A stretch of DNA of 64,000 nucleotides from Potamilus streckersoni. Lineage: Eukaryota. The stretch is taken from the NCBI GenBank assembly GCA_016746295.1, contig JAEAOA010001935.1:2866024-2930023 (forward strand), read 5' to 3'. A program made the translations under genes and the position numbers. Shown one piece after another: positions 770 to 63,267 of the stretch. Below the pieces are notes generated by a model. It was not told the origin of the DNA and made no database searches. It saw only the letters and a list, made by a program, of their open reading frames with translations. Within the stretch, counting starts at the first letter, position 1. Each line of letters begins with the position of its first letter.

Positions 770-965
770 TGCAATGTATCTGTTGCTTGCACAGAGCCAG
801 ATCTACCAACATATAATGTGCCAGCAGATCTGGATCTATACAGTTTTTTAGGAGTAATTAGTAGAAAAGACAGCATAGAACCTGATCTACAGGCACATTA
901 TACTATGGCAGATGAAGATAACTGTTGTTTGCAGTTGACTTGACTTATAATTGAGTAGATATGGT
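770..965. mobile_element. Palindromic MITE-like element, copy truncated or degenerate at its left end (CAGATCTG core, right end ...GACTTATAATTGAGTAGATATGG)
   Basis: Shares the CAGATCT..CCAGCAGATCTGG core and the ...TTTGCAGTTGACTTGACTTATAA..ATATGG terminus with the copies at 1511-1712, 19546-19768, 40528-40748 and others. Confidence 0.6.
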
Positions 966-1227
966 AGGTGTAGTGGGTGTGGTTGTCTTGTCTAAGTTTG
1001 TTTATCTTGTAATTTATGTATTGAAATATGCCTTTCTATGATCTATCACACTTCATTTTGTACATAGCCAACATCATACTGGTCAATCATAAAGTGTCAG
1101 CAATGTTGCCCGGCAAAGGCATAGATACATGTATTCCTATACAGTGACAACAATAAACATTGCACAGCAGTTCTCTCCGTTTTATTAATACAAAGACAAT
1201 AATAAATCTGCTGGTAATATTCATTGA

Positions 1228-1440
1228 TATATGATGGCAGTGATCATCACATATATCTATCAAACATAATGGCACTGAATTATCACTGATATGTCATACA
1301 CAATGGCAGTGATTACCACTGATATGTTATACACAATGGCAGTGATTACCACTGATATGTGCAGTGAATTATCACTGATGTATCATACAAAATGGCAGTG
1401 ATTATTACAGATATATCATACATAATGGAAGCATCATTGG
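1228..1440. repeat. 33-bp tandem repeat (ACACAATGGCAGTGATTACCACTGATATGTTAT), about 6 copies
   Basis: CAATGGCAGTG recurs at a 33-bp spacing (1301, 1334, ...). Head-to-tail copies with point variants. Confidence 0.85.
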
Positions 1441-1510
1441 ATCTATAATAATAAATATCATTACCATATGTGTTGCCACAAAATAACAGCTAAAAGAATA
1501 AAATAAATTC

Positions 1511-1712
1511 CATATAAACTCATTTATAAGTAAAGTCCAACATCAGATAACATAGACCCAGATCTGCTGTCACATGATGCATCAGCAGATCTGGTTCTAT
1601 GTTGTTCTACCAAATACTCCCACAAACACCATTCACCCAGATTTATCAAAGGCAGACTGGGTCTGTGCAGTTTGCAGTGGAAACTGACTTATAAATGTTT
1701 AAATAATGGTAC
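1511..1712. mobile_element. Full-length palindromic MITE-like element (about 200 bp; CCATATAAACTCATTTATAAG...CAGATCTG..CAGCAGATCTGG...TTTGCAGTGGAAACTGACTTATAAATG..ATGG)
   Basis: The termini are reverse complements of each other (CCATATA..TTATAAG / CTTATAA..TATGG). The internal core is GACCCAGATCTGC...CAGCAGATCTGG. At least 10 homologous copies lie in the window. Confidence 0.75.
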
Positions 1713-2454
1713 CCTTTCCCTGAGTCTACCAGACCTGCAAGGATTATGTTGAATCATGTTTTTCTCATAGCAAGTATTATAAAATTGGTAATAGGTCTCA
1801 AAAAATGTTTGAATTGTTATTGTAGTTGATTTGGTGTTTGCTGTGATTTCTCCAAACAAGTTAGGCTTTATACACCAGCCAGTCTAATTGATGGAGGAGG
1901 AACCTGGGAATACATCATCAACAACAACATGGGTTGTCAGTGATGATTAATTTTACAGAGAAACCAAACAAAATTCATCATTGAGATAAGTTAGGGTCAA
2001 AACTTTAATGTTTTAGACATCCTGTGTGTCTCAGTTAGTGAAGGTTGGTTGTTCTTTCTGGATCCTTCCTCCAGCAAATATTGTCTGCCATGTAAGCTAA
2101 AAATAGAACAGTGTTAAATGCTACATAATTAAGAATGACTCCTTCTTCCATCATTGTTATCACTGCAAGTATAATGAAATATTGTTGGTGGTATATTAGA
2201 TTTTTGCAGTGTGAGATGGAGTTTCTTCTTTGAATATGTTTGAGGGTCACAATAACATTAGGAATATAAACCCTCCAGACTAATCACTCCAAAACAAAAA
2301 TGATTCTGATTACCCATCTACATGGGGTGGATCCTGGATTAAGGATTCTGACATAACCTGAGACCCATGTGTTACGTCCTTGCCCAAACAATCCTTTCCT
2401 TCATGCCTACTAGCTCTTGTCTGGAGTCTAGCCTTGCAGCAGAAATAATTAAGG

Positions 2455-4258
2455 TCTGAATCAGTCATGGAAAGATGGCTCTCCACTAAATTAAAGGGAT
2501 GTGCTGAATCAGTCATGGAAAGATGGCCCTCCACTAAATTAAAGGGATGTGCTGAATCAGTCATGGAAAGATGGCCCTCCATTAAATTAAAGGGATGTGC
2601 TGAATCAGTCATGGAAAGATGGCCCTCCACTAAATTAAAGGGATGTGCTGAATCAGTCATGGAAAGATGGCCCTCCACTAAATTAAAGGGATGTGCTGAA
2701 TCAGTCATGGAAAGATGGCCCTCTACTTTAAATGGATGTGCTGAATCAGTCATGGAAAGATGGTCCTCCATTAAATTAAAGGAATGTGCTGAATCAGTCA
2801 TGGAAAGATGGCCCTCTACTTTAAATGGATGTGCTGAATCAGTCATGGAAAGATGGCCCTCCACTAAATTTAAGGGATGTGCTGAATCAGTCATGGAAAG
2901 ATGGCCCTCCACTAAATTAAAGGGATGTGCTGAATCAGTCATGGAAAGATGGCCCTCCACTAAATTAAATGGATGTGCTGAATCAGTCATGGAAAGATGG
3001 CCCTCTACTTTAAATGGATGTGCTGAATCAGTCATGGAAAGATGGCCCTCCACTAAATTAAAGGGATGTGCTGAATCAGTCATGGAAAGATGGCCCTCTA
3101 CTTTAAATGGATGTGCTGAATCAGTCATGGAAAGATGGTCCTCCACTAAATTAAAGGGATGTGCTGAATCAGTCATGGAAAGATGGCCCTCCACTAAATT
3201 AAAGGGATGTGCTGAATGAGTCATGGAAAGATGGCCCTCCACTAAATTAAAGGGATGTGTTGAATCATTCATGGAAAGATGGCCCTCCACTAAATTAAAG
3301 GAATGTGCTGAATCAGTCATGGAAAGATGGCCCTCCACTAAATTAAAGGGATGTGCTGAATCAGTCATGGATAGATGGCCCTCCACTAAATTAAATGGAT
3401 GTGCTGAATCAGTCATGGAATTATGGCCCTCCATTAAATTAAATGGATGTGCTGAATCAGTCATAGAAAGTTGGCCATCCACTAAATTAAATGGATGTGC
3501 TGAATCAGTCATGGAAAGATGGCCCTCCACTAAATTAAAGGGATGTGCTGAATCAGTCATGAAAAGATGGCCCTCTACTTTAAAGGGATGTGCTGAATCA
3601 GTCATGGAAAGATGGCCCTACACTAAATTAAATGGATGTGCTGAATCAGTCATGGCAAGATGGTCCTCCAATAAATTAAAGGGATGTACTGAATCAGTCA
3701 TGGAAAGATGGCCCTCCACTAAATTAAAGGGATATGCTGAATCATTCATGGAAAGATGGCCCTCCACTAAATTAAAGGGATGTGCTGAATCAGTCATGGA
3801 AAGATGGCCCTCCACTAAATTAAAGGGATGTGCTGAATCAGTCATGGAAAGATGGCCCTCCACTTTAAAGGGATGTGCTGAATCAGTCATGGAAAGATGG
3901 CCCTCCACTAAATTATAGGGATGTGCTGAATCAGTCATGAAAAGATGGCCCTCTACTTTAAAGGGATGTGCTGAATCAGTCATGGAAAGATGGCCCTCCA
4001 CTAAATTAAAGGGATGTGCTGAATCAGTCATGGAAAGATGGCCCTACACTAAATTAAATGGATGTGCTGAATCAGTCATGGCAAGATGGTCCTCCAATAA
4101 ATTAAAGGGATGTGCTGAATCAGTCATAGAAAGATGGCCCTCCACTAAATTAAAGGGATGTACTGAATCAGTCATGGAAAGATGGCCCTCCACTAAATTA
4201 AAGGGATGTGCTGAATCAGTCATGGAAAGATGGCCCTCCACTAAATTAAAGGGATGTG
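2455..4258. repeat. 48-bp satellite (TGCTGAATCAGTCATGGAAAGATGGCCCTCCACTAAATTAAAGGGATG), about 37 copies, with 45-bp variants (..CTACTTTAAATGGATG)
   Basis: Perfect and near-perfect head-to-tail 48-mers. Because the period is a multiple of 3, the 431-aa minus-strand ORF and the 250- and 231-aa plus-strand ORFs here are repeat artifacts. Confidence 0.95.
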
Positions 4259-5590: not shown

Positions 5591-5885
5591 TCCACATCTC
5601 ATCCCTTTTGATTGCTGTACTTTTTGTTAAAGAGCTTATGGAGAAACTTTATTAAATGGATGTTGGAAGTCTTTTTAGCTTGCATTGATTGATTAAAAAA
5701 AACATGTGACACATTTACACTATTGATCTCCATAAGAGCTGACATTTTATGATAAATCTCATTTATACAGATTCAACAGATGCAAAAGTACTCACTGTGT
5801 TTGCGTGCAAACATTTTCATGCCTCTGTCACAATTATATAGAGTTTATATTGTGTTACTAGTGTCCTGATGTCCTGTTATCATGT
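5590..5885 (+). mobile_element. Copy 2 of the roughly 300-bp dispersed element, inserted inside the AAATATAACACT satellite
   Basis: Homologous to 195-495. Satellite units of the same family lie directly on both sides (5428-5590 and 5890-6215). Confidence 0.75.
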
Positions 5886-5889
5886 CACA

Positions 5890-6611: not shown

Positions 6612-7200
6612 AAGTCCTGTACAGATCACTGACATCTCACTTCTGCATGGGTTTGAGTCTCAGTAAGGCATGAACAGATCATTACCATCTCACTTCTGCA
6701 TGGGTTTGAATCTCAGTAAGGCATGTACAAATCACTGACATCTCACTTCTGCATGGGTTTGAATCTCAGTAAGGCCTGAACAAATCACTGACATCTCACT
6801 TCTGCTTGGGTTTGAGAATCAGTAAGGCCAGAACAAATCACTGACATCTCATTTCTGCATGGGTTTGAGTCTCAGTACGGCCTATACAGATCACTGCCAT
6901 CTCACTTCTGCATGGGTTTGAGTCTCAGTAAGGCCTGAACAAATCACTGACATCTCACTTCTGCATGGATTTGAGTCTCAGTAAGGCCAGAACAAATCAC
7001 TGACATCTCACTTCTGCATGGGTTTGAGTCTCAGTAAGGCATGTACAGATCACTGACATCTCACTTCTGCATGGGTTTGAGTCTCAGTAAAGCATGTACA
7101 GATCACTGATATCTCACTTCTGCATGGGTTTGAGTCTCAGTAAGGCATGTACAGATCACAGACATCTCACTCTTGCATGGGTTTGAGTCTCAGGCTCGGC
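6612..7200. repeat. 61-bp satellite (..ACAGATCACTGACATCTCACTTCTGCATGGGTTTGAGTCTCAGTAAGGCATGT..), about 10 copies; the monomer is homologous to the 5' head of the adjacent SINE-like module
   Basis: Head-to-tail repeats. The last monomer runs directly into the module at 7185. The monomer motif GGGTTTGAGTCTCAG matches GTGAGTTCAAGTCTCAGG and GTGAGTTCGAGTCC in the other two module copies. Confidence 0.85.
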
Positions 7201-7340
7201 CAGTTTGGGTATGTGAGAAAGCTTGCCAGTGGCTTCCCGTGATTCACTGGCTCTTCTTGAGTTCTTTCTCCATCAGATGTACCACTATGCATAGATAATC
7301 ATGTACTGAAAAATGACATTAAACCCAAAACAAAAGACCT
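7185..7340 (+). mobile_element. SINE-like module copy 1 (GGGTTTGAGTCTCAGGCTCGGCCAGTTTGGGTATGTGAGAAAGCTTGCCAGTGGCTTCC...TACTGAAAAATGACATTAAACCCAAAACAAAAG); its 5' head is replaced or amplified as the 61-bp satellite
   Basis: Alignable, at about 65-70% identity, to 15655-15850 and 61535-61745, and to nowhere else. Tandem arrays of different families lie immediately upstream of all three copies. Confidence 0.65.
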
Positions 7341-8712: not shown

Positions 8713-11017
8713 AACTGGTCATGATATGGTTTGTCAAAATCAGAAAGGGAAATAAGTTTGTCCTGTCATACCTCACAAAATAATACCAAATAAAAAATGC
8801 AGAAGTAAATTTCCAGTTGTTATGAACTTACCAAACAAATTATTATCTGACACTAGATGAAAAAGGAATATTATTTAGTAATTAATTAATAATCATTTAA
8901 ACTGGATTGTACCTTTGTTGTTACATTAGCTAGCATAATTATGTAATTTAAGAGGATACACCTGTCATGGAAAATTTTGTTTTGTGGGTTCAACACCATT
9001 TTTCAGTAGATGAAAGGCTATACATTGCAGCCAGTATATTTGGTAGAAGACAAACCTGGGAAAACTCACAAACCAATGGAAAGTTACTGGCAAGCTTTGT
9101 TACATACCAGCATTTGTCAAGCCGAGACTCTAACCCACACAGACAAAGATGATAAGTCAGTGATCTGTCGGGGAGACAACTCATCCACCTGAGGCCACAC
9201 TGTCATTAGAGAAAACTCAAAGTATGACAAAATTTGCCCATTGTGTGCACTGTTATCTTGTACATATAGATTCAATAGTCAAGTGAAATGAAGAAAGGTT
9301 TGTACATGTTATGAGCAGGTTTTCATTGCTGTCTCAAGGTTGCATAAGAAAATTAGAAAATAACATACAATAACATCATTTTTATCTCTTTTTTTTGTCA
9401 CATTTAATGACACCAGAACACAAAAGTGTCTATATTGTGCCAACAAATATTAATTGTAATTTAAAAATAATTATATATTTAAAAGTATTTATACCCTTTG
9501 CATTACTTGTCCATAATTTGTAATCAATTACAATTACTGATTACCTTTTTTGCAGGAATTGATTACAATTACAATTTTTTATTTCAATTACTTAATTGAT
9601 TACTTTAATTCATTACTGTACTACACTGTAAAGGGCAAACCAAGCAGCCAAAGCTACCCAGCAGTCACCCATTTCTGAATAGAAGATTCCATATACTGAC
9701 CTCAAATATTGTGTGAATTAACATGTTTTTCATATTGACAAAATATGTAGAATGGAAATTCCATAAACAGGCATAAAAACATCCAACATTGTTCTGTGCA
9801 AAATGTGAATTAACCAATGAGAACTGTGAGCTGTGACAGACTGAACAGAAGTAATGTAAATGTACTCAAATTATGTGGATATAAAAGTACATGTAATTAA
9901 TTACTTCAGTGTGAAAGAGTAATTGTAATCAACTACAACAAGTAATTTTAATTTTAATTCATTGCCCTTACAACAGTAAAATACAACACTGGCCTTTGCA
10001 TTACCCATTATTCAGGGGGACTGTAGAGCAGCTTTGACTGCTTCATTTTAATTCTAAATAAATGGTTTTTTACAAGTGGAGAAAAGAATGGATGAACATG
10101 ACTTTAAAAATAATAAACATTACAATTGATGTATTAGATAAGTCATAATGGTAAATAAGACATGAATATTTTCTTTAAGAAGGATGCTTGTAGTTGAAAG
10201 AGCTGATATAGGACAGATTTTAATGTATTATATAGAATCAACTACTATGGCAGTTTTAATCTGACATCTGATGCCTTCTTGTCAGTCTGTAATCTCTCAC
10301 ACACACAAACACACAGTTACATGCACACACACAAACACAGCCTGTGAAGGAATCTACACATGTAGACATGGTCTGCATGTGGATACTGTTGACTTTAAAT
10401 GAGGTAAACACAGTTTGGAATGTAACTTTTGTCAGGTAGATGGCATACAGGTATGTTACAACTCCCGCTACTTTGGCTAAATGCCACTGTGAAGGCTAAG
10501 GGTCTCCACCGTCTTTTCAATCCCAGTTAAATGTGCTATCAAAATAGACACTGTCAATATTTCCCCCAAAGTCCTATTGGAGTAACAGGTAGTCAGCCAA
10601 TAAATGGTGTGTACTGCCATTCAGTATTGCCTCCAAAGACTGAATCAGTTATTAGTAACTGTTTCTCACAGAGTGGCAAGTTGGATTTAGTTCTTTTTAT
10701 GATTTTGTTCTAGTTTATGTGGATAAATTCAGGACATCTAAGAGTCATTCAATAAGGTATGAATATTGATTGATTATTGACTATTGGTTAAGGTTCAATT
10801 TAACAGGTGAAGTTGATAATTACTATCATAGCGTGTTGTCAAAATATTTCCTGACAACACTACATTGGCTTTTGGATGCAATATTGTCATTCCTAGGCAT
10901 AAAATGTGATGATACAGCAGTTTACTGTAGTATGCATTTTCAGAATAAACATGAAGCTAGCAATTCATTCATTGACATACAGTCTACATTTAAAGTCAAA
11001 ATCAAGTGATCACCTTA

Positions 11018-11737: not shown

Positions 11738-11885
11738 GTACCATAATGAATTTCAGTCAAGTCCCACTGCACAGACCCAGATCTTATATATATTTTGTTT
11801 GGAGTAGAACATGCAATCAGGTGCATGTAGCGAAGGCTGATCAAGGTCTGTGTTATCTGTGTTTAACTTGATTATATTCAAGAGG
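11738..11885. mobile_element. Degenerate fragment of the palindromic MITE-like family
   Basis: Contains ..GTCCCACTGCACAGACCCAGATCT.. and ..GATCAAGGTCTGTG..TTAACTTGATTATA.., but is much more diverged than the other copies. Confidence 0.35.
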
Positions 11886-12034
11886 TGACTGTCATAGTAG
11901 TACATATTATATTTGCAATCACATGACATTGTATTGCCATCACACTGTGGTCAAAAGCATGATTAATATATGGAAATTTCCATTGTGTGTTGTTGAATTA
12001 TCCTGAAGGAAATTTTAATATGTCATATATGTTT

Positions 12035-12315
12035 GTGTGTGTGTGATTTAGATTTTTTTTAAAAAAAATTCAGTCATATCGCTACAATATCTGCAGAGTG
12101 ACAGTTTATAGTGATGTCTAGCACTGGGGCTTCATGCCACAGACATGTGGCACGATGTCACAACCAGTCCCATTATCCTGACACAGGGCTGACCAGTCCT
12201 AACACTAACCTCTTAATGCTGTTAGTACCATTTTTTAAAGTCTTTGGTATGATTTGGCCTGGGTTCAAACCCATGACCTCCTGCATCCAAGGTAGATGTT
12301 CTAACCACTAGGACA
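12035..12315 (-). mobile_element. tRNA-derived SINE with a (CA)n tail (family A), copy 1
   Basis: The reverse complement of 12240-12315 gives a tRNA-like head, GCTCTGGTGTCCTAGTGGTTAGAACATCTACCTTGGATGCAGGAGGTCATGGGTTTGAACCC, with A-box-like TAGTGGTTAGAAC and B-box-like GGTTTGAACCC motifs. The body is homologous to the copies at 25140, 26010, 40150 and 55245. A (GT)7 tract at 12035-12049 gives a CA tail on the element strand. Confidence 0.7.
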
Positions 12316-12354
12316 CCAGAGCAGTTATTATTGTCTTAAGTAAAAGCATACTTT

Positions 12355-12520: not shown

Positions 12521-12548
12521 CTGTTTATTTGTATTTTATGCCAACACA

Positions 12549-12770
12549 TATTGTCTGTACTTGCCTACAGGTTGAGTCCAACTGCAAACAACATAGGCTC
12601 ACATAAAGTGCTGGCAGGTTAGGGTCTATAATGTTTGTTCTATTGATTATCTTGACAAACTGCATAGATTCAGATCTGCCAGCTCATTATGCAATGGCAG
12701 GTTTGTGCATGTGCAGATTGCTGTTGGATTTCAAATAACTGAGTACATACCATATTATCCAAAGGAACAA
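12549..12770. mobile_element. Palindromic MITE-like element copy (..CAGGTTGAGTCCAACTGCAAACAACATAGGCTC...CAGATCTGCCAGC...GGATTTCAAATAACTGAGTACATACCATAT)
   Basis: The left terminus is nearly identical to the family consensus GTTGAGTCCAACTGCAAACAACATAG. The internal part shows palindromic symmetry. Confidence 0.7.
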
Positions 12771-18394: not shown

Positions 18395-19255
18395 TTGCTC
18401 ATCTCATAATGCACCAGCAGATTTTGGTCTTTATCTTTTTGTACTTATGGTTTCAAATACAGATCCTGATCTGCCAGGAAATAATACACCAGTAGTTCTG
18501 GATCAAAGCTCTTCACTGTACTACTAATTTCAATGACAGACCTTGATCATATAAAGCACTAGCAGATTTGGGTCTATGTTCATTGTACTTTTTATTCAAA
18601 CACAGATCCAGCTGTCATATAATACACCAGCAGATCTGGGTCAAAGATCTTCACTGGACTACTGGTTTCAAGCACAGACCCAGATCTCTCATCATATGAT
18701 ACACAAGCAGATCTGGGTCAGGGCTTTTAATTGTATTATTGATTTAAAGCACAGACCCAAATCTGTCACACAAGCAGATCTGGGTCCGGGCTTTTAATTG
18801 TATTATTGATTTAAAGCACAGACCCAAATCTGTCACACAAGCAGATCTGGTCCAGCCTGTTATTGATTTAAATTGATCATGTCAAATTGATCATATTGAT
18901 TTAAAGCACAGACCCAGATCTGTCATATGATACACAAACAGATCTGGGTCCAGGCTGTTAATTGTATTATTGATTTCAAGCACAGAGCCAAATCTGTCAT
19001 ATGATAAACAAGCAGATCTATGCCCAGGCAGTTTATTGTATTATTGATTTAAAGCACAGACCCAGATCTGTCACACAAGCAGATCTGGGTCCAGGCTGTT
19101 AATTGTATTATTGATTTCAAGCACAGAGCCAAATCTGTCATATGATACACAAGCAGATCTGTGCCCAGGCTGTTTATTGTATTATTGATTTAAAGCACAG
19201 ACCCAGATCTGTCACACAAGCAGATCTGGGTCCAGGTTGTTAATTGTAATGTTGA
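18395..19255. repeat. MITE-derived satellite: about 12 tandem monomers of 67-74 bp (ACAGACCCAGATCTGTCACACAAGCAGATCTGGGTCCAGGCTGTTAATTGTATTATTGATTTAAAGC), with a 151-bp dimeric higher-order unit toward the right end
   Basis: The monomer is the palindromic core (GACCCAGATCTG...CAGCAGATCTGGGTC) of the MITE-like family. GGGCTTTTAATTG recurs at 67 bp (18721, 18788), and AAAGCACAGACCCAGATCTG recurs at 151 bp (19041, 19192). Confidence 0.9.
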
Positions 19256-19321
19256 TTTCACAAACTCAATACATGTATGCTATGGCAGCTCTTAGTCTTT
19301 CTTATTCATTGATGGGTACAT

Positions 19322-19402: not shown

Positions 19403-19545
19403 TATCATTAACAGTTTTGTTTCTAGCCTGGTTACAGGAGAGTTCTTTACCCTGTACTCCCTAGGTGGTGTCCTGCCTTCTCTGTGCTGCATCATGCGTG
19501 TCTTGGAGGCTGCCATGTCTTAAATCTCAGAATGTTTAATACTGT

Positions 19546-19768
19546 ATATACTCACTTTTTAAAGTTGAGTCAAACTGCAAACAACAAAGATCCTGATCTC
19601 CCATAGCATCATATGACTATAGATCCAGGTCTATGTTGTTTGTTCTACAGATTAGTCCTAACAAACAACACAGACACAGACAGACCAGCCAGTGCATTAT
19701 GCACCAGATGATCAAGGTCTGTGCAGTTTGCAGTTGGACTGAACTTATAAGCGAGCATATATGGCACA
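19546..19768. mobile_element. Full-length palindromic MITE-like element copy (TATATACTCACTTTTTAAAGTTGAGTCAAACTGCAAACAAC...GGTCTGTGCAGTTTGCAGTTGGACTGAACTTATAAGCGAGCATATATGG)
   Basis: The best-preserved copy: both termini are mutual reverse complements, and it consists of two palindromic halves of about 100 bp each. Confidence 0.8.
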
Positions 19769-25139: not shown

Positions 25140-25400
25140 AGTGGCCTAATACATTAAAACAATGCCTCAGATGATCATAGTTTCAAACCCTGGCTGAGCA
25201 TGGTGTATAAAAATGGTACTAGCAGCTGCCTTGCTTTGTGCTCAGCATTAAGAGGTTAGTGTTAGGACTGGTCAGCCTGGTGTCAGGATAATGTAACTGA
25301 ATGGGTCCTTACACAGGATATTGTGACCTGGGTGGGACATCACATGTCTTCAGTATGATGCCCCAGTGCTAGACATGACTATACATTGCCACAGCTGATG
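25140..25400 (+). mobile_element. tRNA-derived SINE (family A), copy 2; head degraded, 3' tail absent
   Basis: The body ..AAAATGGTACTAGCAGCTGCCTTGCTTTGTGCTCAGCATTAAGAGGTTAGTGTTAGGACTGGTCAGCCTGGTGTCAGGATAATGT..GGGACATCACATG..CCCCAGTGCTAGACATGACTATACATTGCCACAG is homologous to 40150-40476 and to the minus-strand copies. Confidence 0.65.
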
Positions 25401-25840
25401 CCTTATGAAATGGCAGATCAAGGACTTTGTTGCTTCCCTTTGGATTCAACTGGTAAGCAATTTTATATGACATCTATAAAATCTGAAAAGACCCATTAGC
25501 CTGTGAAATGGCACTTTTCATGGTTGAGCTGTACAGAATTTTTCAAATGAGCTGATATGATTGAATAAATATGCATGGATTTGTTTAAGTGGATATCAGA
25601 TTTACCCATTTTAACATTTGTATTGCTCCAATCAAGTAACAAAATGCAAGTTCTTGTCACTTTTCACATCGATCATGCACATAAGTATAGGCAGTTTCCA
25701 TCTCAGGTTGTAATTTAATGTGGTTCTCCTCACTGTATAAAAATGAGAATACATTGTCAAAACTAATAACACTATCATAATTAATGTTGTAGATCTGCTA
25801 ATTACCATATACATAATTATTATACATCAGTATCTCATGA

Positions 25841-26290: not shown

Positions 26291-26834
26291 AAAATAAACA
26301 GACCCTGATCTGCCTGTTAGGCTGATGAATATGTCCCAACAATGACCATCCTAAAACTTTTTATTGGAAGAGATTTATCAGCAGGTGATTTGATAATGGA
26401 GTTGGATTAGCACTTTTGGGCAAATGTCAAACAAAGATAACTAAGGTAATTGCATGTGGCCATTTTAAATCTGTTTCATTTTGTCATCATTTCATAATAA
26501 ATACTGTTAGACCTTTTTTACACTCCAGAGTATCAGAGTAAGGTGTATGAAATTTGCAGTTGAACAAGTTCAACCAACATTTACAACTCTTGAAGGCTGA
26601 GATTTCAACTAAGTATGATCTCTCTGGTTGGCAAACCATCAACTTGAAATAGCAACCACTTTACCTAACCTCAGGCAGAAATGGGGATCAAAGAGTAGTG
26701 GATAAGCATGTTACCACTGCAATATCCAGGCAACTTAATAAAAGTCAAGGTTTCTGGTCCTTGTATGTATTAAACAACTGCTGATGCATTTTTCCATGAA
26801 ATATAACTCATTTATAGTTTAAATAAATATCACT

Positions 26835-31615: not shown

Positions 31616-31967
31616 CATTACATGTACTATGTTCTATCAGCACTCATCCAAAATGCATGGAACTTTGTGCATGCAGACAAGGCAATAGATAAGTCATAAC
31701 ACATAGACTCTGGTTCAAATCTTAGTAGAGGAAGAATTAAACATTCTCAAACCTGCATGTAAATGTTCTTTATCCATTTTTGTTATTTTATTATTAGGGA
31801 TTGTAATGTATATAAAGTGAGCTCTACTGTAGACTATATAGACATAAATTAGCCAATGCAGGGTAATATATAATGTAATGGTTCCATCTGTAATTTCAAA
31901 CAAGCAGTATAGATCATGACCTCCATGTACTTTATGTGATGGTAGGTAGTCTAGGTCTATGCAAACT

Positions 31968-32200
31968 TAATAGAAACTCTTTCATAGCTCAAGTCTATCA
32001 CAAGATGGCATGAGTTTATAATGGGATTTTTGTATTAGTTCTTTAAACAAAATTTCTTACTAGAGAACCCAACATGCTGAACTTAATAGAAATTCTTTCA
32101 TTGCTCAAGTCTATCACAAGATGGATGAGTTTATTATGGGATTTTTGATTTAGTTCTTCAAGCAAAATTTCTTACTAGAAAACCCAACATGCTGATGGTA
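31968..32200. repeat. Roughly 115-bp direct duplication (CTTAATAGAAAYTCTTTCATWGCTCAAGTCTATCACAAGATGG..ATGAGTTTATWATGGGATTTTTG..TTAGTTCTTYAARCAAAATTTCTTACTAGARAACCCAACATGCTGA)
   Basis: Two adjacent copies at about 90% identity. Confidence 0.85.
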
Positions 32201-40527: not shown

Positions 40528-40748
40528 ACCATATATGCTTGCTTATAAGAGTCCTCCTGCAGCAAGCAGCTCAGACCCAGATCTGCCATTGCATAATGCT
40601 CCAGCAGATCTGAGTCTGGCAGTTTGTTAAGAATAATCAGTAAAACAAACAATATATACCCTGATCTGCAGGCATATTAAGTCATGGCAGATCAGGATCT
40701 TTATTATTTACAGTTTTATGTGACTTATAAGTGAGTATATGTGGGACC
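40528..40748. mobile_element. Full-length palindromic MITE-like element copy (CCATATATGCTTGCTTATAAGAGTCC..CAGACCCAGATCTGCCATTGCATAATGCTCCAGCAGATCTGAG...GTGACTTATAAGTGAGTATATGTGGG), about 50 bp downstream of the SINE tail
   Basis: The termini CCATATATGC..CTTATAAG and CTTATAAGTGAGTATATGTGG are reverse complements. Internal paired CAGATCTG motifs. Confidence 0.8.
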
Positions 40749-44974: not shown

Positions 44975-45172
44975 CTTACTTTATACACTTCCAAGTTGAT
45001 CCATCTGCAAACAACATAGACATTGATCTGTCATTGCATAATGTGACAGCAGATCGGGTCGTGTTCTACTGATTACTCCTTACCTACTGCACATTATCCA
45101 ATGACAGATCAGGGTCTGTGTTCTACTGATTACTCCTCACCTACTGCACATTATGCAGTGTCAGATCTGTGT
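44975..45172. mobile_element. Palindromic MITE-like element copy (left terminus ..TTTATACACTTCCAAGTTGATCCATCTGCAAACAACATAGAC..), with a 40-bp internal duplication (GTGTTCTACTGATTACTCCTYACCTACTGCACATTAT x2); the right terminus is replaced by the 60-bp satellite
   Basis: Its left half matches the family consensus. After ..CAGTGTCAGATCTGTGTCAGGATGG the sequence continues directly as the first monomer of the 45160-46165 array. Confidence 0.7.
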
Positions 45173-55150: not shown

Positions 55151-55244
55151 TAAATAGTTCTCTTTGATATTTTAAGAAAATATTAAATGTTCCACTTGAT
55201 ATGGTAGACATGTTATTGAATAAAAAAAGTTCCCCATGATAAGG

Positions 55245-55528
55245 TGTGTGTGTGTGTGTTTTGGATTTTCAACATAGCTTGAACAGTTTTTTCATATCGA
55301 TATGATGTCTGCAGTATGGCAGTTTATAGTGATGTGATGTCTAACACTGGGGCATCATGTCCCACACAGTCACATTATCCAAACACCAAGCTGACCAGTT
55401 CTAACACTAACCTTGTAATGCTGATCGCCAAGAGAGGAAGCTGTTTGCACCATTTTTATGTCTTTCATATGACTCTGCCTTGGTTTTAACCTACAACTTC
55501 ACACATCCAATTAGACACTCTAACCAAT
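55245..55528 (-). mobile_element. tRNA-derived SINE (family A), copy 5, near full length with a (CA)n tail
   Basis: (GT)8 at 55245-55262, then TTTTGGATTTTCAACATAGCTTGAACAGTTTTTTCATATCGATATGATGTCTGCAGTATGGCAGTTTATAGTGATGT..CTAACACTGGGGCATCATGTCCCACAC.., collinear with the other minus-strand copies. The reverse complement of 55470-55528 gives the head ..CAGTTGCCTAATTGGTTAGAGTGTCTAATTGGATGTGTGAAGTTGTAGGTTAAAACC. Confidence 0.7.
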
Positions 55529-55934
55529 TAGGCAACTGGAGTGGTCCCCATGATAAGGTAGAATAATGTTAGTGAATAAAGAATTGCCTGTGATAGGGAA
55601 GAAGAATGGTAAATTGCATCTTGGTGGATGTTATGTTATGCACATTCATCAGATAGACTGGTTTGTTTTTATTTCAGTAAATAATTAGTTTTTAATTATT
55701 GTGAATCAGTCTTTCAAAGAACTTATGCTCTCAAATTTTTTTTGAGATATTGTCCATGGTACATTTGACCTACAAAAAGACATTACACTATTTAAATAAG
55801 CATGCAAAAGTACTTTATAAGATTTCTTTACCATTGAGCTAGATATTTGTCTTGAGAGCATTCTTAATACAATGATTTGAAATGCAAATATTTGTAGTGC
55901 CTAATGGATTAAACCAGTAATTGAAGATCTATAT

Positions 55935-56158
55935 ACTATATTTACTCATGTATAAGACAAGTCCAGCTGCCAAAACAACATGGACATTGATCTACCATTG
56001 CACTGTGTGCTAATTTATCAGGATCTATGATGTCTGTTCTTCTGATAACTTGTAACAAACTGAATAGACCTTAATCTGCCGGCACATTCATAATACAATA
56101 GCAGATCTGGCTCTGACTAGTTTTCAATTGGACTCGACTTATAAGCAAGTTTAGATGG
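55935..56158. mobile_element. Palindromic MITE-like element copy (TATACTATATTTACTCATGTATAAGACAAGTCCAGCTGCCAAAACAACATGGAC...CAGATCTGGCTCTGACTAGTTTTCAATTGGACTCGACTTATAAGCAAGTTTAGATGG)
   Basis: The termini match the family: CATGTATAAGACAAGTCCAGCTGC and CTTATAAGCAAGT..ATGG. Confidence 0.75.
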
Positions 56159-56977: not shown

Positions 56978-59828
56978 TAAAGGATCATAGTTAAATAGTA
57001 AAAAAGCATAACTGGATTACAATGCCATATAGAAAGTTGGATCAAAGTTGAATAGTAGAAAAGCATAACTGGATTACAATGCCATATGGAAAGTTGGATC
57101 ATATTTAAATAGTAAAAAAGCATAACTGGATTAAAATACCATATGGAAAGTTGGATCATATTTAAATAGTAAAAAAGCATAACTGGATTACAATGCCATA
57201 TGGAAAGTTGGATCATAGTTAAATAGTAAAAAAGCATAACTGGATTACAATGCCATATGGAAAGTTGGATCATATTTAAATAGTAAAAAAGCATAACTGG
57301 ATTAAAATACCATATGGAAAGTTGGATCATATTTAAATAGTAAAAAAGCATAACTGGATTACAATGCCATATGGAAAGTTGGATCATATTTAAATAGTAA
57401 AAAAGCATAACTGGATTAAAATACCATATGGAAAGTTGGATCATATTTAAATAGTAAAAAAGCATAACTGGATTACAATGCCATATGGAAAGTTGGATCA
57501 TAGTTAAATAGTAAAAAAGCATAACTGGATTACAATGCCATATGGAAAGTTGGATCATATTTAAATAGTAAAAAAGCATAACTGGATTAAAATACCATAT
57601 GGAAAGTTGGATCATATTTAAATAGTAAAAAAGCATAACTGGATTACAATGCCATATGGAAAGTTGGATCATAGTTAAATAGTAAAAAAGCATAACTGGA
57701 TTACAATGCCATATGGAAAGTTGGATCATAGTTAAATAGTAAAAAAGCATAACTGGATTACAATGCCATATGGAAAGTTGGATCATAGTTAAATAGTAAA
57801 AGAGCATAACTGGATTACAATGTCATATGGAAAGTTGGATCATAGTTAAATAGTAAAAAAGCATAACTGGATTACAATGCCATATGGAAATTTTGATCAT
57901 AGTTAAATAGTAAAAAAGCATAACTGGATTACAATGCCATATGGAAAGTTGGATCATAGTTAAATAGTAAAAAAGCATAACTGGATTACAATGTCATATG
58001 GAAAGTTGGATCATATTTAAATAGTAAAAAAGCATAACTGGATTACAATACCATATGGAAAGTTGGATCATATTTAAATAGTAAAAAAGCATAACTGGAT
58101 TACAATGCCATATGGAAAGTTGGATCATAGTTAAATAGTAAAAAAGCATAACTGGATTACAATACCATATGGAAAGTTGGATCATAGTTAAATAGTAAAA
58201 AAGCATAACTGGATTACAATACCATATGGAAAGTTGGATCATAGTTAAATAGTAAAAAAGCATAACTGGATTACAATGCCATATGGAAATTTTGATCATA
58301 GTTAAATAGTAAAAAAGCATAACTGGATTATAATGCCATATGGAAAGTTGGATCATAGTTAAATAGTAAAAAAGCATAACTGGATTACAATGTCATATGG
58401 AAAGTTGGATCATAGTTAAATAGTAAAAAAGCATAACTGGATTACAATGCCATATGGAAAGTTGGATCATAGTTAAATAGTAAAAAGCATAAATGGATTA
58501 CAATGCCATATGGAAAGTTGGATCATAGTTAAATAGTAAAAAAGCATAACTGGATTACAATGCCATATGGAAAGTTGGATCATAGTTAAATAGTAAAAAA
58601 GCATAACTGGATTACAATGCCATATGGAAAGTTGGATCATAGTTAAATAGTAAAAAGCATAACTGGATTACAATGCCATATGGAAAGTTGGATCATAGTT
58701 AAATAGTAAAAAAGCATAACTGGATTACGATGCCATATGGAAAGTTGGATCATATTTAAATAGTAAAAAAGCATAACTGGATTACAATGCCATATGGAAA
58801 GTTGGATCATAGTTAAATAGTAAAAAAGCATAACTGGATTACAATGCCATATGGAAAGTTGGATCATAGTTAAATAGTAAAAAAGCATAACTGGATTACA
58901 ATGCCATATGGAAAGTTGGATCATTGTTAAATAGTAAAAAAGCATAACTGGATTACATTGCCATATGGAAAGTTGGATCATAGTTAAATAGTAAAAAGCA
59001 TAACTGGATTACAATGCCATATGGAAAGTTGGATCATAGTTAAATAGTAAAAAGCATAACTGGATTACAATGCCATATGGAAAGTTGGATCATAGTTAAA
59101 TAGTAAAAAAGCATAACTGGATTACAATGCCATATGGAAAGTTGGATCATAGTTAAATAGTAAAAAAGCATAACTGGATTACAATGCCATATGGAAAGTT
59201 GGATCATAGTTAAATAGTAAAAAAGCATAACTGGATTACAATGCCATATGGAAAGTTGGATCATAGTTAAATAGTAAAAAAGCATAACTGGATTACGATG
59301 CCATATGGAAAGTTGGATCATATTTAAATAGTAAAAAAGCATAACTGGATTACAATGCCATATGGAAAGTTGGATCATAGTTAAATAGTAAAAAAGCATA
59401 ACTGGATTACAATGCCATATGGAAAGTTGGATCATAGTTAAATAGTAAAAAAGCATAACTGGATTACAATGCCATATGGAAAGTTGGATCATTGTTAAAT
59501 AGTAAAAAAGCATAACTGGATTACATTGCCATATGGAAAGTTGGATCATAGTTAAATAGTAAAAAGCATAACTGGATTACAATGCCATATGGAAAGTTGG
59601 ATCATAGTTAAATAGTAAAAAGCATAACTGGATTACAATGCCATATGGAAAGTTGGATCATAGTTAAATAGTAAAAAAGCATAACTGGATTACAATGCCA
59701 TATGGAAAGTTGGATCATAGTTAAATAGTAAAAAAGCATAACTGGATTACAATGCCATATGGAAAGTTGGATCATAGTTAAATAGTAAAAAAGCATAACT
59801 GGATTACAATGCCATATGGAAAGTTGGA
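56978..59828. repeat. 57-bp satellite (GCATAACTGGATTACAATGCCATATGGAAAGTTGGATCATAGTTAAATAGTAAAAAA), about 50 copies, with ATTAAAATACC, CATATTTAAAT and A5/A6 length variants
   Basis: CATAACTGGA recurs at 57121 and 57178 (57 bp = 3 x 19). This explains the minus-strand ORFs of 305, 169, 127 and 112 aa (MLFYYLTMIQLSIWHCNPV repeats). Confidence 0.95.
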
Positions 59829-59864
59829 ACCTTCTGTGTAAGAAAGGTAATGGTTTTCAACTTC

Positions 59865-60225
59865 TTCATTATTGCCTCTATAAAGTCCCTCTGAGTCCCA
59901 TGTATAGTCATGATCATTGCCTCTGTAAAGTCCCTTTGAGCCCCATATTGATCATTGCCTGTATAAAGTCCCTCTAAGTCCCATGTATACTCTTGATCAT
60001 TGAATCTGTAAAGTCCCTCTAAGTCCCATGTATACTCTTGATTATTGAATCTGTAAAGTCCCTTTGATTCCCATATTGATCATTGGCTCTATAAAGTCCC
60101 TCTAAGTCCCATGTATACTCTTGATTATTGCCTTTGTAAAGTCCCATTGAGTACCATATTGATCATTGCCTGTATAAAGTCCCTTTAAGTCCCATGTATA
60201 CTCTTGATTATTGCCTATATATACT
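59865..60225. repeat. Roughly 45-bp degenerate tandem repeat (GTAAAGTCCCTCTAAGTCCCATGTATACTCTTGATTATTGAATCT), about 8 copies
   Basis: AAAGTCCCT recurs at about 59963, 60009, 60051 and 60091. The array ends exactly where the MITE copy at 60216 starts. Confidence 0.85.
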
Positions 60226-60414
60226 TGCTTATAAGCTGAGTCCAGCTACAGACAACATAGATCCTGAACTGCCATTGTATAATAGTAGATCATGGTCAAT
60301 TTTTGTTCTACTGATTACTCCTAAGAAACTACATAGACCAGAGTATTATTCAATGGCAGAACTGGATTAGTGCTGTTTCCAGTTGGACTCCACTTACAAG
60401 CAAGTATATATAGT
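60216..60414. mobile_element. Palindromic MITE-like element copy (CTATATATACTTGCTTATAAGCTGAGTCCAGCTACAGACAACATAGATCC...GTTTCCAGTTGGACTCCACTTACAAGCAAGTATATATAG)
   Basis: The termini are reverse complements and the internal structure matches the family. An extra partial terminus, ACTGCTTGCTTATAAATAATG, follows at 60414-60436. Confidence 0.8.
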
Positions 60415-60984
60415 AACTGCTTGCTTATAAATAATGTGTTGTTGTGAATCCCTATTAAACTGGTTAATTATCATTTTGTCATTTCTAATTAATTTTTAAT
60501 TTGTCAATTGTCATTTTGTCATTATCACTTTGTTATCTCTCATAATTTGTCAATTGTCATTTTGTCATTACCACTTTGTTATCTCTCAGTGGTGTAACAA
60601 GAAATTTTGCTTGGCCTCCCTGCAAACTTAATTCTTGGGAGCACCCACACAAAAAAAAAAGTTGTTGATGGGAAGTTTGGCTTCCCTCCTCCCTGTCTGT
60701 GTGGGTAGCTTGGGGCAGTTGCTATGTCACTGATCTATGTGTTTTCCTAAAAAGTGTTGGGGATGTTGTGATATTGTAACCATTTGTCTGTCTTTCCATT
60801 CACCTGTCCATTACCACAGCTTAAACCACTAGGTAGAATTTCACTAAACCCTACTTTGCTGCCCCTTGTGGTGACAGTCTGTAATAAGGGTGACATTATT
60901 AACTCCCAACCTTCAGGGGTCCCTAGGCATGGTGTAGAATATTTATTTTGCAAGCAAATTTTATATTTTAAATTGTTACATATA

Positions 60985-61230: not shown

Positions 61231-61239
61231 TTTGATTGA

Positions 61240-61440
61240 TTGCATAGTACACCTAACCCTACCATTGTGCAGTAAACCTAACCCTACCATTGCACAGTTA
61301 ACCTAACCCTACCATTGCACAGTTAACCTAACCCTACCATTGCACAGTTAACCTAACCCTACCATTGCACAGTTAACATAACCCTACCATTGCACAGTTA
61401 ACCTAACTCTACCATTACACAGTTAACCTAACCCTACCAT
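61240..61440. repeat. 23-bp minisatellite (CCTAACCCTACCATTGCACAGTTAA), about 8 copies
   Basis: Perfect 23-mers at 61285-61400. Confidence 0.9.
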
Positions 61441-61479
61441 TAATAGCACACTAAACCTAACCCTACCAAGCTAAACTTA

Positions 61480-61745
61480 ACAAGAAAATTTACAAGTGGT
61501 CTAATGCAATGTACTCACTGTTCCAGATCACTGCCTCTTGACTCCTTCTAGGTGAGTTCAAGTCTCAGGCTGGGCTAATGTGGGTATTCCAGAAAGCTGG
61601 CCGGTAGCTTCTCATGGGTCAGTGGTTCTTATGGGGTTATCTAGGGTTATTACTCCATTAGTTATACTGGATGCCTTGTATAACTTATCTTGTGATGAAA
61701 ATAGCATTAAATCATGCAACAAGCAACAAAAATAGCTGGAGCACA
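61480..61745 (+). mobile_element. SINE-like module copy 3, the most complete: tRNA-like head (..ACAAGTGGTCTAATGCAATG..(about 45 nt)..GGTGAGTTCAAGTCTCAGG) plus the conserved body ending ..GTGATGAAAATAGCATTAAATCATGCAACAAGCAACAAAAATAG
   Basis: An A-box-like AGTGG motif at about 61497 and a B-box-like GAGTTCAAGTC motif at about 61548, spaced about 50 nt apart. The body aligns to 7185-7340 and 15655-15850. It lies directly 3' of the 23-bp minisatellite. Confidence 0.6.
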
Positions 61746-63045
61746 AAAACAATCTAGCTTTTTTCTGGTATTTTCTGTTTTTAATCCTTCAGGTTTTCAA
61801 GCTTTTCAAGTAACAGACTATCTGACAAGAGCAAAAGGTAGATTATGAAGGGTATTTAATAGAAGTGGCCAGTAAACAGTGTCAGTTCGTTTGGTATATA
61901 TGATGGAAAATCTGTTTAATGCAGAATGTATACATGTAGTCAGTCTGGTAAAGTTAATGCTAATTAAGGATAGATTCTTCATTGTGATATTTTTTTCTTT
62001 AATCATAACTGTATTTATACCAGTTAATAAAGCCATCTAAATAGCAACACCTTATTGTAATAATATAACATCTTACATACATATCTAAATTTGTGCTTTC
62101 TAATTTGTTGTTCAATCCATGCACTACATTTCTCATGTACATTTTAAACTACTTATGTTTTTGTAATTTGTTTTAAAGAATACATTGTATTTAATTGGAG
62201 TTTCTTTTTTTCCTCTATACATTTAAAATATACAGTGTACCTTCATTAAAGGGGCCCATTTCTAAACCTTATGCAGACTGGATACATATTTTGGTCACAA
62301 TGGAACCAGTGCAGTTTTAATCAACCTCTCTAAACTGGTCCCTTTGTAACCCAACCTCCTATGTGGACTAGTTTGCATATTTTTGTCCCAAGCAGTAATT
62401 AACCTCTTGAAATGATCTCTTTATAATCTGGATTTTTCTGCAGTCTGGTCAATATAGACCTAATACACTAGTATTAATAAACCTCTCTAAACTGAACACT
62501 TTGTTATCCAGATTCTCCTATAGACTGGACACATACTTTATGATCCTTATGGGGCCACTGCAATAATATTTAAACTCTTTCTCCACCAGCCAGCTCTATC
62601 AAAATAGCCAATGACTTGGGTCTCAGTCCAACGGTGGCCTTTTCAGGTTTCACTGTAGTTATAATGTCACTATAGGAATATGTTTGAATATTGATTTCAT
62701 TGAAAGATCCATAATAATCAATAATCATTATATCTATTTAAGAAGAAAAAAAGATTTTTTTTCATTTGTCAAGCTGCTTTATTAGAAAGCTGTGTAATTG
62801 TTAAATCTATATTTAATATCTGACAAATACTCATTTCCTTCTGTTATGTGTAACAGTTTTTAGTGTTTGATTTTTGTATGTATTGCGGTAGGCAGATGAG
62901 AATAAAGGTAAAATTTCCAGGTACAGTAAACTGATATAGTAAATAAGAAAACTAAACCAGAAGTCAATAATGGTTTCAGGTAAATGACATCTGGTTAATT
63001 GCATCTATAATTTATTTCAAGAAAAAAAATGGCATTTCACTTATG

Positions 63046-63267
63046 TAATATGAATACTCAATTTTAGGTTGAGTCCAACTGCAAAAAAAACCCATAAACC
63101 CTGATTTACTGTCACATACAGAACTGACTTATCAGGGTGAATATTATATGTTCTCCTGATCACTCCCAACAAACTTCATAGACCCTGATTTGCCAGCACA
63201 TTATAGTATGGCATATCTGGGTCTGTGCAGCTTGCAACAATTAGTCTTATAAATGAGCATATATGGT
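63046..63267. mobile_element. Full-length palindromic MITE-like element copy (..ATATGAATACTCAATTTTAGGTTGAGTCCAACTGCAAAAAAAACCCATAAACCCTGATTT...GGTCTGTGCAGCTTGCAACAATTAGTCTTATAAATGAGCATATATGG)
   Basis: The right terminus is nearly identical to 19720-19768. The left terminus is GTTGAGTCCAACTGCAAA. Two palindromic halves. Confidence 0.8.

Follow-up and report, generated by a model that had tools for sequence, protein, structure and literature searches.

A TA-flanked palindromic MITE family, probably of Tc1/mariner type, and a satellite-like array formed from its inner module

A family of short palindromic elements, made up of 13 scattered copies (some of them fragmentary) and one amplified locus (18395-19260), was found in the analysed stretch of DNA (64 kb, hereafter the window) at a density of about one copy per 5 kb. 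The family probably represents relics of a non-autonomous class II element, a long-TIR, Stowaway-like MITE of Tc1/mariner type. In its features it resembles common cut-and-paste elements and not a relative of Helitrons. The inner part of the element is also the source of the satellite-like array at the amplified locus.

A previous reading of the sequence alone (the sequence-only reading) had proposed a MITE-like palindromic family that includes the amplified locus, and this proposal was borne out. The nhmmer profile, built from seven of the nine copies listed in that reading, placed all nine within a few bases of where they had been reported (E = 1e-60 to ~1e-22), and the consensus suggested there matches the one rebuilt here. 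Further members were detected at 25392-25474, 26298-26335 and ~31808-31987 (Table 1). The copy described as degenerate at 11738-11885 is real, but it proves to be short yet complete, spanning 11741-11897 and bordered by TA at each end. The inner motif AGACCCWGATCTGCC occurs 44 times with up to 3 mismatches, compared with 1.4 occurrences expected from shuffles, and the TIR motif occurs 7 times compared with 0.37 expected. The copies are independent insertions and not segmental duplicates, because their flanking sequences are unrelated. Copy lengths range from 157 to 223 bp, and the family is old, its present copies differing by 19-32% from the consensus. A search of public metagenome contigs and prokaryotic genome contigs with a gapped two-arm pattern and an 18-mer revealed no family copies; 23 metagenome or prokaryotic loci matched only the seed, failed the family profile and were rejected as chance hits. 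A peptide from the consensus arm had no match in a protein-word search of a 5.8-billion protein set, and no paper was matched by MITE and SINE sub-sequences used as literature text strings.

Table 1. Members of the palindromic family in the window, with supporting evidence, flanking dinucleotides and structural remarks
Feature	Position	Strand	Evidence	Flanks and remarks
MITE copy	775..965	-	nhmmer E=4.5e-39; 80.6% identity to consensus	outer ~30 bp of window-left TIR lost or unrecognisable; TA at 966-967 after right end; oriented by asymmetric centre AGGAGTAATTAGTAGAA
Complete MITE copy	1510..1709	+	nhmmer E=6.6e-48; K2P to consensus 0.30	left TT, right TA
Complete short variant, 157 bp	11741..11897	-	nhmmer E=7e-7, consensus alignment, direct reading	one inner hairpin module absent; TA at 11739-11740 and 11898-11899
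Complete MITE copy	12551..12752	+	nhmmer E=1.2e-51	TA both sides
Satellite-like array of internal module	18395..19260	.	TRF periods 67/74/77/141; multiple nhmmer matches	
Complete MITE copy	19542..19764	+	nhmmer E=4.4e-60; fold -41.4 kcal/mol, z=-7.2	left TA, right CA
Half copy (one inner motif + one TIR)	25392..25474	+	nhmmer E=1e-8, model positions 146-226	fused directly to 3'-truncated SINE A
Small fragment	26298..26335	+	perfect 15-mer AGACCCTGATCTGCC at 26300-26314; nhmmer E=0.08	adjoins 5'-truncated head of another SINE A copy
Degenerate full-length copy	31808..31987	-	nhmmer E=1.2e-6; alignment to consensus positions 2-215	terminal ~24 bp within first unit of two-copy 115-bp tandem duplication 31964-32195 (TRF)
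Complete MITE copy	40529..40744	-	nhmmer E=1.2e-54; fold -38.5 kcal/mol, z=-5.1	left TA, right GA; orientation from asymmetric centre
Copy without right TIR	44975..45170	+	nhmmer E=1e-21; consensus alignment	left TIR, hairpin 1, centre, 57-bp internal tandem duplication (TRF 45050-45167, period 57)
Complete MITE copy	55936..56158	+	nhmmer E=1.3e-56	left TA, right TT
Complete MITE copy	60215..60413	+	nhmmer E=5.5e-54	right TA; best preserved palindrome, arms 71% alike
Complete MITE copy	63048..63266	+	nhmmer E=1.2e-56	TA both sides

The reconstructed consensus is a near-perfect palindrome of 220 bp (DNA fold -96.1 kcal/mol, z = -25), built of a ~36-bp outer inverted repeat, two inner hairpins with 25-bp stems and an asymmetric centre of 15 nt. 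The ancestral element of ~220 bp would have had the layout TA, outer TIR CCATATATACTCACTTATAAGTTGAGTCCAACTG, hairpin 1, 15-nt centre, hairpin 2, outer TIR' and TA. The stem of each hairpin comprises ~25 bp (CAAACAACATAGACCCWGATCTGCC), and the second hairpin repeats the first in reverse-complementary form; therefore, the element as a whole is a single palindrome in which a 25-bp motif occurs four times, and these motifs are putative transposase-binding sites. The arms of the consensus match at ~90% across the first ~100 nt. The near-perfect palindrome and 100-bp hairpin of the sequence-only reading hold for the consensus; in the real copies the two arms match each other with an identity of 0.51-0.71 (null 0.50), and the MFE amounts to about -38 to -41 kcal/mol (copies 40529 and 19542). 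Paired cells account for 75.9% in the copies and 75.6% in column shuffles, 185 of 500 shuffles reaching the observed value, and the RNAalifold consensus of the copies is essentially nil (-0.7 kcal/mol). Because the arms of the present copies are 51-71% alike and carry no compensatory changes, the hairpin is ancestral and the palindrome is decaying neutrally. None of the six frames of the consensus is open. Within the window, no ORF outside the arrays, in or near the copies, has a Pfam match, and no transposase gene was found.

These data also bear on the possibility that the family is a foldback-type element or a functional hairpin (a small-RNA precursor, a structural or a replication element) with a palindrome under selection, which is very improbable. 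Foldback (FB-like) elements have very long TIRs of tandem subrepeats and a ~9-bp TSD, whereas the arms described here hold inverted, not tandem, motif copies and the flanks carry no 9-bp direct repeat. A functional hairpin would be in keeping with the ~100-bp fold of the consensus and with the origin of miRNA genes from palindromic MITEs such as Made1 (PMC1784062), but the shuffle-like level of pairing, the absence of RNAalifold structure and the low identity of the arms all argue against it. Moreover, no copy has an Rfam match, and Rfam (gathering and E-value thresholds) and ARAGORN returned only low-complexity noise on the window, with no RNA-family or tRNA signal.

The termini of the element read 5'-CCATATATAC...GTATATATGG-3', i.e. 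CCATAT... and ...ATATGG. From base one (CCATATATAC), the left ends can be aligned with the reverse complements of the right ends, and the inverted repeats reach both ends. When homologous ends are aligned, similarity breaks off after one flanking dinucleotide, which is TA at 10 of the 17 scored ends (P = 1.6e-6 at a background TA frequency of 0.105); two further TA ends were read directly in copy 11741-11897, the scoring thus covering ~19 ends of old copies in one 64-kb window. Most of the remaining flanks are one substitution off TA, and the TA retention of ~60-65% is in line with the ~80% per-site conservation of the copies. Position -3 is background-like (A7/T5/G3/C2). As read from occupied sites only, the pattern ...TA-element-TA... 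includes A...T, and T is present at -2 in 14 of 17 ends, which would be unexpected for TSD-free insertion between A and T, the mode of canonical Helitrons. No nested insertion giving a paralogous empty site occurs within the window. No copy-specific direct repeat of 3-10 bp was detected at the flanks in either boundary register, which speaks against hAT, PIF, piggyBac/Kolobok, Mutator, P and similar superfamilies. The flanking TA appears to represent the target-site duplication. The element is short (<600 bp) and non-coding, its TIRs extend to the very ends and TA lies on the flanks, as in a Tc1/mariner-type (Stowaway-like) MITE.

Tc1/mariner termini usually begin with CAGT or CCAGGT. The CCATAT terminus is atypical for this group and counts against the assignment. 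It would suit a cut-and-paste MITE from a different or unknown TIR superfamily, whose outermost TIR bases are TA and whose real TSD is missing, very short or decayed beyond recognition. TA is also conserved about as well as internal positions, as would be a terminal TIR base pair. This alternative is nevertheless rather unlikely: when TA is counted inside the element, the next 2-10 bp match no better than in mismatched copy pairs, and a TSD of 8-9 bp should match at ~60% at ~20% divergence, while ~27% was observed. Under the preferred Tc1/mariner assignment, the element would most likely have been mobilised in trans by a DDE transposase of that presumed superfamily. The sequence-only reading had regarded TA target-site duplications together with short TIRs and no genome-wide association with tandem repeats as the sign of an ordinary Tc1/mariner-type MITE; judging by occupied sites, the flanks agree with this description, but the TIRs are long. 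Stowaway-like MITEs are recognised by the resemblance of their TIRs to those of autonomous Tc1/mariner elements from the same genome (PMC3814204).

The amplified locus at 18395-19260 consists of ~12 tandem units of 67-77 bp and has no outer TIRs on either side. Each unit comprises a hairpin arm, the centre, a hairpin arm and a loop. The nhmmer matches in this locus (E down to 6e-14) are confined to model positions ~42-195, and the units score z = 6.6-7.8 against the consensus, which shows that the locus is made of the internal module of the element; the earlier view had assigned the locus to the family. The duplicated 57-bp unit of copy 44975 scores z = 13.4 in the same comparison. The number of ~70-bp inner modules amounts to 0.5 in copy 11741, 1.5 in the canonical element, 2.5 in copy 44975 and ~12 at 18395-19260. 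Because of this variation, it can be stated that the element seeded one satellite-like array through local tandem duplication. The internal duplications may have been promoted by hairpin-prone DNA; stem-loop-based models of the conversion of MITEs to tandem repeats are attributed to Hikosaka & Kawahara and Izsvak et al. in PMC8268682.

Tandem repeats make up 41% of the window, and five junctions between copies and arrays had been claimed. Two of them truly abut: the 56-bp x17.5 array at 45171-46159 (TRF) begins where copy 44975 stops, and the left end of copy 60215 (first given as 60216) adjoins the end of the 45/83-bp array 59863-60221. The other three copies lie at a distance, the one first placed at 12549 starting 17 bp past the end of the array 12358-12533, and those placed at 1511 and 19546 lying ~81 and ~156 bp away, respectively. 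The periods of 55 and 60 bp given for two of the arrays are not those found by TRF, which are 45/88 bp (12358-12533) and 56 bp. In total, 4 of 12 copies are located within 20 bp of an array (p ~0.006, a post hoc value calculated from the same data that suggested the idea). Two unrelated SINE families lie just as near to arrays or nearer (median distance 83 bp versus 415 bp expected, p = 0.005), and the placement described as non-random is a weak effect that is not specific to the element. The proximity to arrays is best explained mostly as a regional effect, because tandem repeats occupy so much of the window and interspersed repeats of every kind gather close to them. The surplus of copies lying 20 bp or less from an array is not fully accounted for.

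Each of the five SINE A copies has a MITE copy or fragment no more than ~400 bp away, and the (CA)n tail of one of them stops ~51 bp before the copy at 40528/40529, practically as reported earlier (52 bp). SINE A and the MITE as one composite element were rejected, their order and orientation being inconsistent. A derivation of the abutting arrays from the element was likewise rejected, the 33-, 45-, 56-, 87- and 115-bp units having no significant similarity to it. Weak resemblances of 20-33 nt are seen with the 75-bp repeats of 51912-52931 and the 40-bp repeat of 28258-29207 (p = 0.002-0.11); they fail correction for ~45 tests, and these arrays were not accepted as element-derived.

The junctions would be explained if the palindromic element promoted the birth of arrays at or near its insertion site, through fork stalling at a hairpin or cruciform, slippage or template switching. 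The inner module was amplified in situ, both as the 57-bp duplication in copy 44975 and as the ~12 units at 18395-19260, the 115-bp duplication at 31964 starts within a TIR, one-third of the copies lie within 20 bp of arrays, and stem-loop models of this kind are published (cited in PMC8268682). Nevertheless, such an effect is improbable. The units of the abutting arrays (45, 56, 33 and 87 bp) are without significant similarity to the element, the weak similarities found in the 75-bp and 40-bp repeats fail after correction, non-palindromic SINEs lie at an equal or smaller distance from arrays, and the proximity statistic was computed on the data that suggested the effect. A reading of low probability takes the element as a local seed or boundary of arrays, whose hairpin-prone DNA amplifies its inner module (18395-19260 and copy 44975) and its junctions (31964); the contact of one-third of the copies with an array could have the same cause. 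If this were true genome-wide, the family would add measurably to the exceptional load of short satellite-like arrays in the host.

The sequence-only reading leaned towards a Helitron or Helentron with cargo tandem repeats, which is contradicted by the termini, the TA flanks, the two-fold symmetry and the intact copies free of arrays. On this view, the family would be a non-autonomous Helitron/Helentron derivative (HINE/DINE-1/Cg_HINE-like), mobile by rolling-circle replication and carrying or capturing tandem repeats; this origin is largely refuted and hardly credible. In its favor are the hairpin-forming sequence near both ends of the element, the 4 of 12 copies close to arrays and, if the host is a bivalve, the abundance in the Pacific oyster of non-autonomous Helentron elements with central tandem repeats (PMC7492417). 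However, canonical Helitrons have 5'-TC and 3'-CTRR ends and a palindrome of 16-20 nt confined to the 3' side, ~11 bp from that end (PMC4067079), whereas the two ends of the present element are mirror images, with no 5'-TC/CTRR-3' and no 3'-only palindrome. HINE, DINE-1 and Cg_HINE elements are characterized by 11-15 bp subTIRs at unequal distances from the two ends (2-4 nt at the 5' end, 38-60 nt at the 3' end), and by a fixed order and orientation of 5' inverted repeat with microsatellite, central tandem repeats and 3' palindrome; HINEs prefer TT or T-rich sites, have T-runs at their boundaries and insert without a TSD (PMC7492417, PMC4067079). Such asymmetric subTIRs are absent here, the inverted repeats being terminal, symmetric and ~100 nt long in the consensus, and the flanks are TA and not TT or T-runs. 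The alignment of eight copies contains no microsatellite and no foreign central repeats, and seven complete copies are without a foreign array. Where a complete copy has an array as its neighbor, the array lies outside the copy, on one side or the other, and has no sequence relationship to it; SINEs of unrelated families are just as close to arrays. The two hairpins described here are mutually reverse-complementary, and not direct copies on one strand, as an HUH enzyme with strand specificity would require.

Summarizing, the clean consensus, the boundaries and the likely superfamily would help to mask repeats and annotate TEs in the host genome, and a false lead towards Helitron-like biology is removed. 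The graded series of modules (0.5, 1.5, 2.5 and ~12) within one window illustrates the way from an inverted-repeat element to a satellite-like array, a process that is already described in other organisms. The wider setting is perhaps more interesting than the MITE itself, with 41% tandem repeat and at least two arrays originating from transposable elements. Among known systems, the long-TIR Stowaway-like MITEs include Milord, Cele1/2, Tc6 and mosquito Stowaway-like families, according to PMC3814204. The present family resembles them in being short, non-coding, TA-flanked and of high copy number, with a family-specific TIR much longer than that of typical autonomous Tc1/mariner elements, a likeness that rests on occupied sites; it differs in the extra inner hairpin of each arm (four 25-bp motifs) and in the CCATAT terminus. 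Made1, a nearly perfect palindromic MITE derived from human Hsmar1, has 80 bp, with two 37-bp TIRs and 6 bp between them (PMC1784062). The present element is also essentially one palindrome, with a consensus that folds to a very stable hairpin, but it has ~220 bp, nested hairpins and an asymmetric 15-nt centre. With elements of Cg_HINE, DINE-1 and pearl type it shares abundance, short non-coding and hairpin-forming sequence, and a place among tandem repeats in a repeat-rich and perhaps molluscan genome, but it shows none of the subTIRs, 5' inverted repeat with microsatellite, central foreign repeats, 3' palindrome and TT insertion of HINEs. Although the amplification found here is a single ~0.9-kb array within one window, it follows the same course as the MITE tandem repeats of Xenopus (Hikosaka & Kawahara 2004) and the model of Izsvak et al. 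1999 (PMC8268682), in which an inner module becomes a satellite-like array, and as the Drosophila virilis foldback element Tetris (PMC4079207), an inverted-repeat element with an amplified inner module whose number varies among copies.

The palindromic family of ~220-bp non-coding elements, here called the MITE, is an ordinary element of a known kind with long outer terminal inverted repeats (TIRs), and its earlier observation in a sequence-only reading was largely confirmed. With a profile derived from seven of the nine copies listed there, nhmmer recovered all nine (E = 1e-60 to 1e-22). The same profile also recovered the copy at 11738 and gave many matches over 18395-19320, so that both this copy and the amplified locus from 18395 belong to the family, as had been proposed; a half copy and a degenerate copy were added (see the table). 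In the window, the inner motif AGACCCWGATCTGCC occurs 44 times against 1.4 expected (≤3 mismatches), a count that includes a small MITE fragment at 26300 holding a perfect 15-mer, and for the TIR motif there are 7 occurrences where 0.37 would be expected. The copies share 66-77% pairwise identity and lie at K2P distances of 0.19-0.32 from the nine-copy consensus. Since the similarity ends at the element boundaries, they are old independent insertions and not segmental duplicates of one locus, the alternative that had been raised. Beyond copy 60215-60413, after a gap of 4 bp on its right side, lies a 13-nt partial TIR (CTTGCTTATAA..., 60418-60430), which may have been left by a second insertion or by aberrant repair.

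The copies were oriented by their asymmetric 15-nt centre (eight on the + strand, four on the - strand), and the resulting alignment gave a 220-bp consensus. From left to right, flanked by TA on both sides, it comprises the outer TIR (CTATATATACTCACTTATAAGTTGAGTCCAACTG), hairpin 1 (CAAACAACATAGACCCTGATCTGCC-loop-GCAGATCAGGGTCTATGTGTTTG), the centre TTCTACTGATTACTCCTAA, hairpin 2, and outer TIR'. In hairpin 2, the sequence of hairpin 1 recurs in reverse complement, loop included, which results in the two-fold symmetry of the whole element. When folded as single-stranded DNA, the consensus forms one ~100-bp hairpin (-96.1 kcal/mol, z = -25), as predicted. The near-perfect palindrome claimed earlier thus holds for the consensus, but not for the real copies, which are characterized by an arm identity of 0.51-0.71 (null 0.50) and fold at ~ -38 to -41 kcal/mol. 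The long hairpin is a property of the ancestral MITE. RNAalifold found almost no structure in common over the real copies. Under the consensus-derived structure, 75.9% of cells were paired versus 75.6% in column shuffles, which indicates that the arms decayed independently, without compensation; this comparison gave no indication of selection on the hairpin.

To describe the termini, left ends were aligned with reverse-complemented right ends, and 17 ends were scored. The similarity starts at CCATATATAC, directly after the flanking dinucleotide, and the terminus reads TACCATATATACTC.... The dinucleotide is TA in 10/17 ends (P = 1.6e-6; background TA frequency 0.105), nearly all other flanks (TT, TG, TC, AA) are one substitution away from TA, and position -3 is background-like. 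Retention of ~60-65% is as expected, because per-site conservation is ~80%. The short variant has TA at both ends, two more beyond the 17 scored. Copy-specific direct repeats of 3-10 bp were absent whether TA was counted inside or outside the element. The picture agrees with that of TA-targeting Tc1/mariner-type (Stowaway-like) MITEs, in which TA is always duplicated and TIRs are unusually long in several families (PMC3814204). TA is thus probably a duplicated target, but may instead form the terminal dinucleotide of the TIR.

The inner ~70-bp module, which consists of hairpin arm, centre, hairpin arm and loop, varies in copy number, and the series is a small example of the transition from a MITE to a satellite-like array. 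The internal duplications probably arose from slippage in hairpin-prone DNA; stem-loop-based models for such conversion already exist, as summarised in PMC8268682. The 53-bp array (10.8 units) is a second array of TE origin: its unit corresponds to the 53 bp at the 5' end of SINE B (z = 13.5 versus shuffles), a tRNA-derived family with a B-box-like GAGTTCGAGTCTC. This array continues straight into the body of the SINE B copy at 7178-7333.

The window is AT-rich eukaryotic non-coding DNA (GC ~33%), of which 41% (26.1 kb) was assigned by Tandem Repeats Finder to 59 merged arrays with units of 19-151 bp, many mutually unrelated. No genes were detected over 1-64000; all ORFs of at least 110 aa are tandem repeats in translation, the shorter ORFs outside arrays had no Pfam matches, and the window contained neither tRNA genes nor Rfam families above noise. 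Five MITE copies had been placed at array junctions. Copies 44975 and 60216 truly abut an array, but 12549 lies at 17 bp, 1511 at ~81 bp and 19546 at ~156 bp. In a post hoc test of 12 copies, with positions drawn at random outside arrays as the null (arrays ≥100 bp), 4/12 copies were within 20 bp of an array versus 0.8 expected (p = 0.006), and the median distance was 184 bp versus 414 bp expected (p = 0.04). The four close cases are heterogeneous, as one is a two-copy 115-bp duplication beginning within the TIR and another is without the right TIR; the arrays that abut copies have units unrelated to the MITE. Moreover, nine SINE copies of two tRNA-derived families unrelated to the MITE are no farther from arrays than the MITE copies (median 83 bp versus 415 bp expected, p = 0.005). 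Therefore, closeness to arrays is a trait of the interspersed repeats of this region and not, as had been suggested, of the mechanism of MITE transposition. Stretches of 20-33 nt in the mutually related 75-bp arrays resemble the outer TIR (p = 0.002, 0.11) and a likeness to the hairpin-loop region was seen in the 40-bp array (p = 0.007); after ~45 tests, neither likeness is significant, and both serve as leads only.

SINE A (~330 bp, tRNA-derived, with an A- and B-box-like head and a (CA)n tail) lies 0-400 bp from a MITE copy or fragment in all five copies; a single composite was rejected, because order and orientation are inconsistent. At 25393/25392, a SINE A lacking its 3' end is joined directly to the MITE half copy, and at 26290/26298 a 5'-truncated one is joined directly to the fragment with the perfect 15-mer of the inner motif, which points to the hairpin motif as a site of deletions or insertions. 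All four SINE B copies lie within ~270 bp of an array. The two 44-bp arrays, ~76% alike with a SINE B copy between them, look like one array split by a SINE insertion, the halves having then diverged or homogenised separately. The 25-bp and 27-bp arrays, ~1 kb apart, represent one family split by ~950 bp of other sequence, as indicated by their ~76% identity. The window also contains two copies, 86% identical, of a 299-bp unclassified dispersed repeat.

Positions of repeat features in the window
Feature	Position	Strand	Remark
MITE, short variant	11741-11897		0.5 inner modules
MITE, canonical copies			1.5 inner modules
MITE, copy 44975	44975		2.5 inner modules, via 57-bp duplication
MITE, amplified locus	18395-19260		~12 inner modules, outer TIRs absent
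MITE, half copy	25392-25474
MITE, degenerate copy	~31808-31987
SINE A	25150-25393	+
SINE A	40165-40475	+
SINE A	12030-12330	-
SINE A	26012-26290	-
SINE A	55244-55540	-
SINE B	15667-15829
SINE B	61552-61711
SINE B	8977-9143	-
SINE B	7178-7333
Array	2456-4258		example of >2 kb
Array	21096-23693		example of >2 kb
Array	37775-39969		example of >2 kb
Array	56982-59828		example of >2 kb
53-bp array	6621-7193
44-bp array	14002-15656
44-bp array	15853-16470
40-bp array	28258-29207
25-bp array	46350-47127
27-bp array	48082-48627
75-bp array	51912-52356
75-bp array	52445-52931
75-bp array	53048-53823
Dispersed repeat	196-494
Dispersed repeat	5599-5887

The family is quite likely a non-autonomous cut-and-paste element mobilised by a TA-targeting Tc1/mariner-superfamily DDE transposase. 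Such an enzyme would have acted in trans, with the four 25-bp motifs as putative binding sites. The family is now extinct or very old and subject to neutral decay. It may already be catalogued in TE libraries. The derivation from Helitrons or Helentrons favoured earlier is not supported. A canonical Helitron starts with 5'-TC, ends in CTRR-3' and has a palindrome near its 3' end only. HINEs carry asymmetric subTIRs of 11-15 bp, a 5' inverted repeat with a microsatellite, foreign tandem repeats in the centre and a palindrome on the 3' side; they target TT or T-rich sites and produce no target-site duplication (PMC4067079, PMC7492417). The MITE has none of these defining features; foreign arrays are absent from all seven of its complete canonical copies, and internal repeats in its copies consist solely of its own module. 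Among known MITEs, Made1 is likewise a nearly perfect palindrome (PMC1784062).
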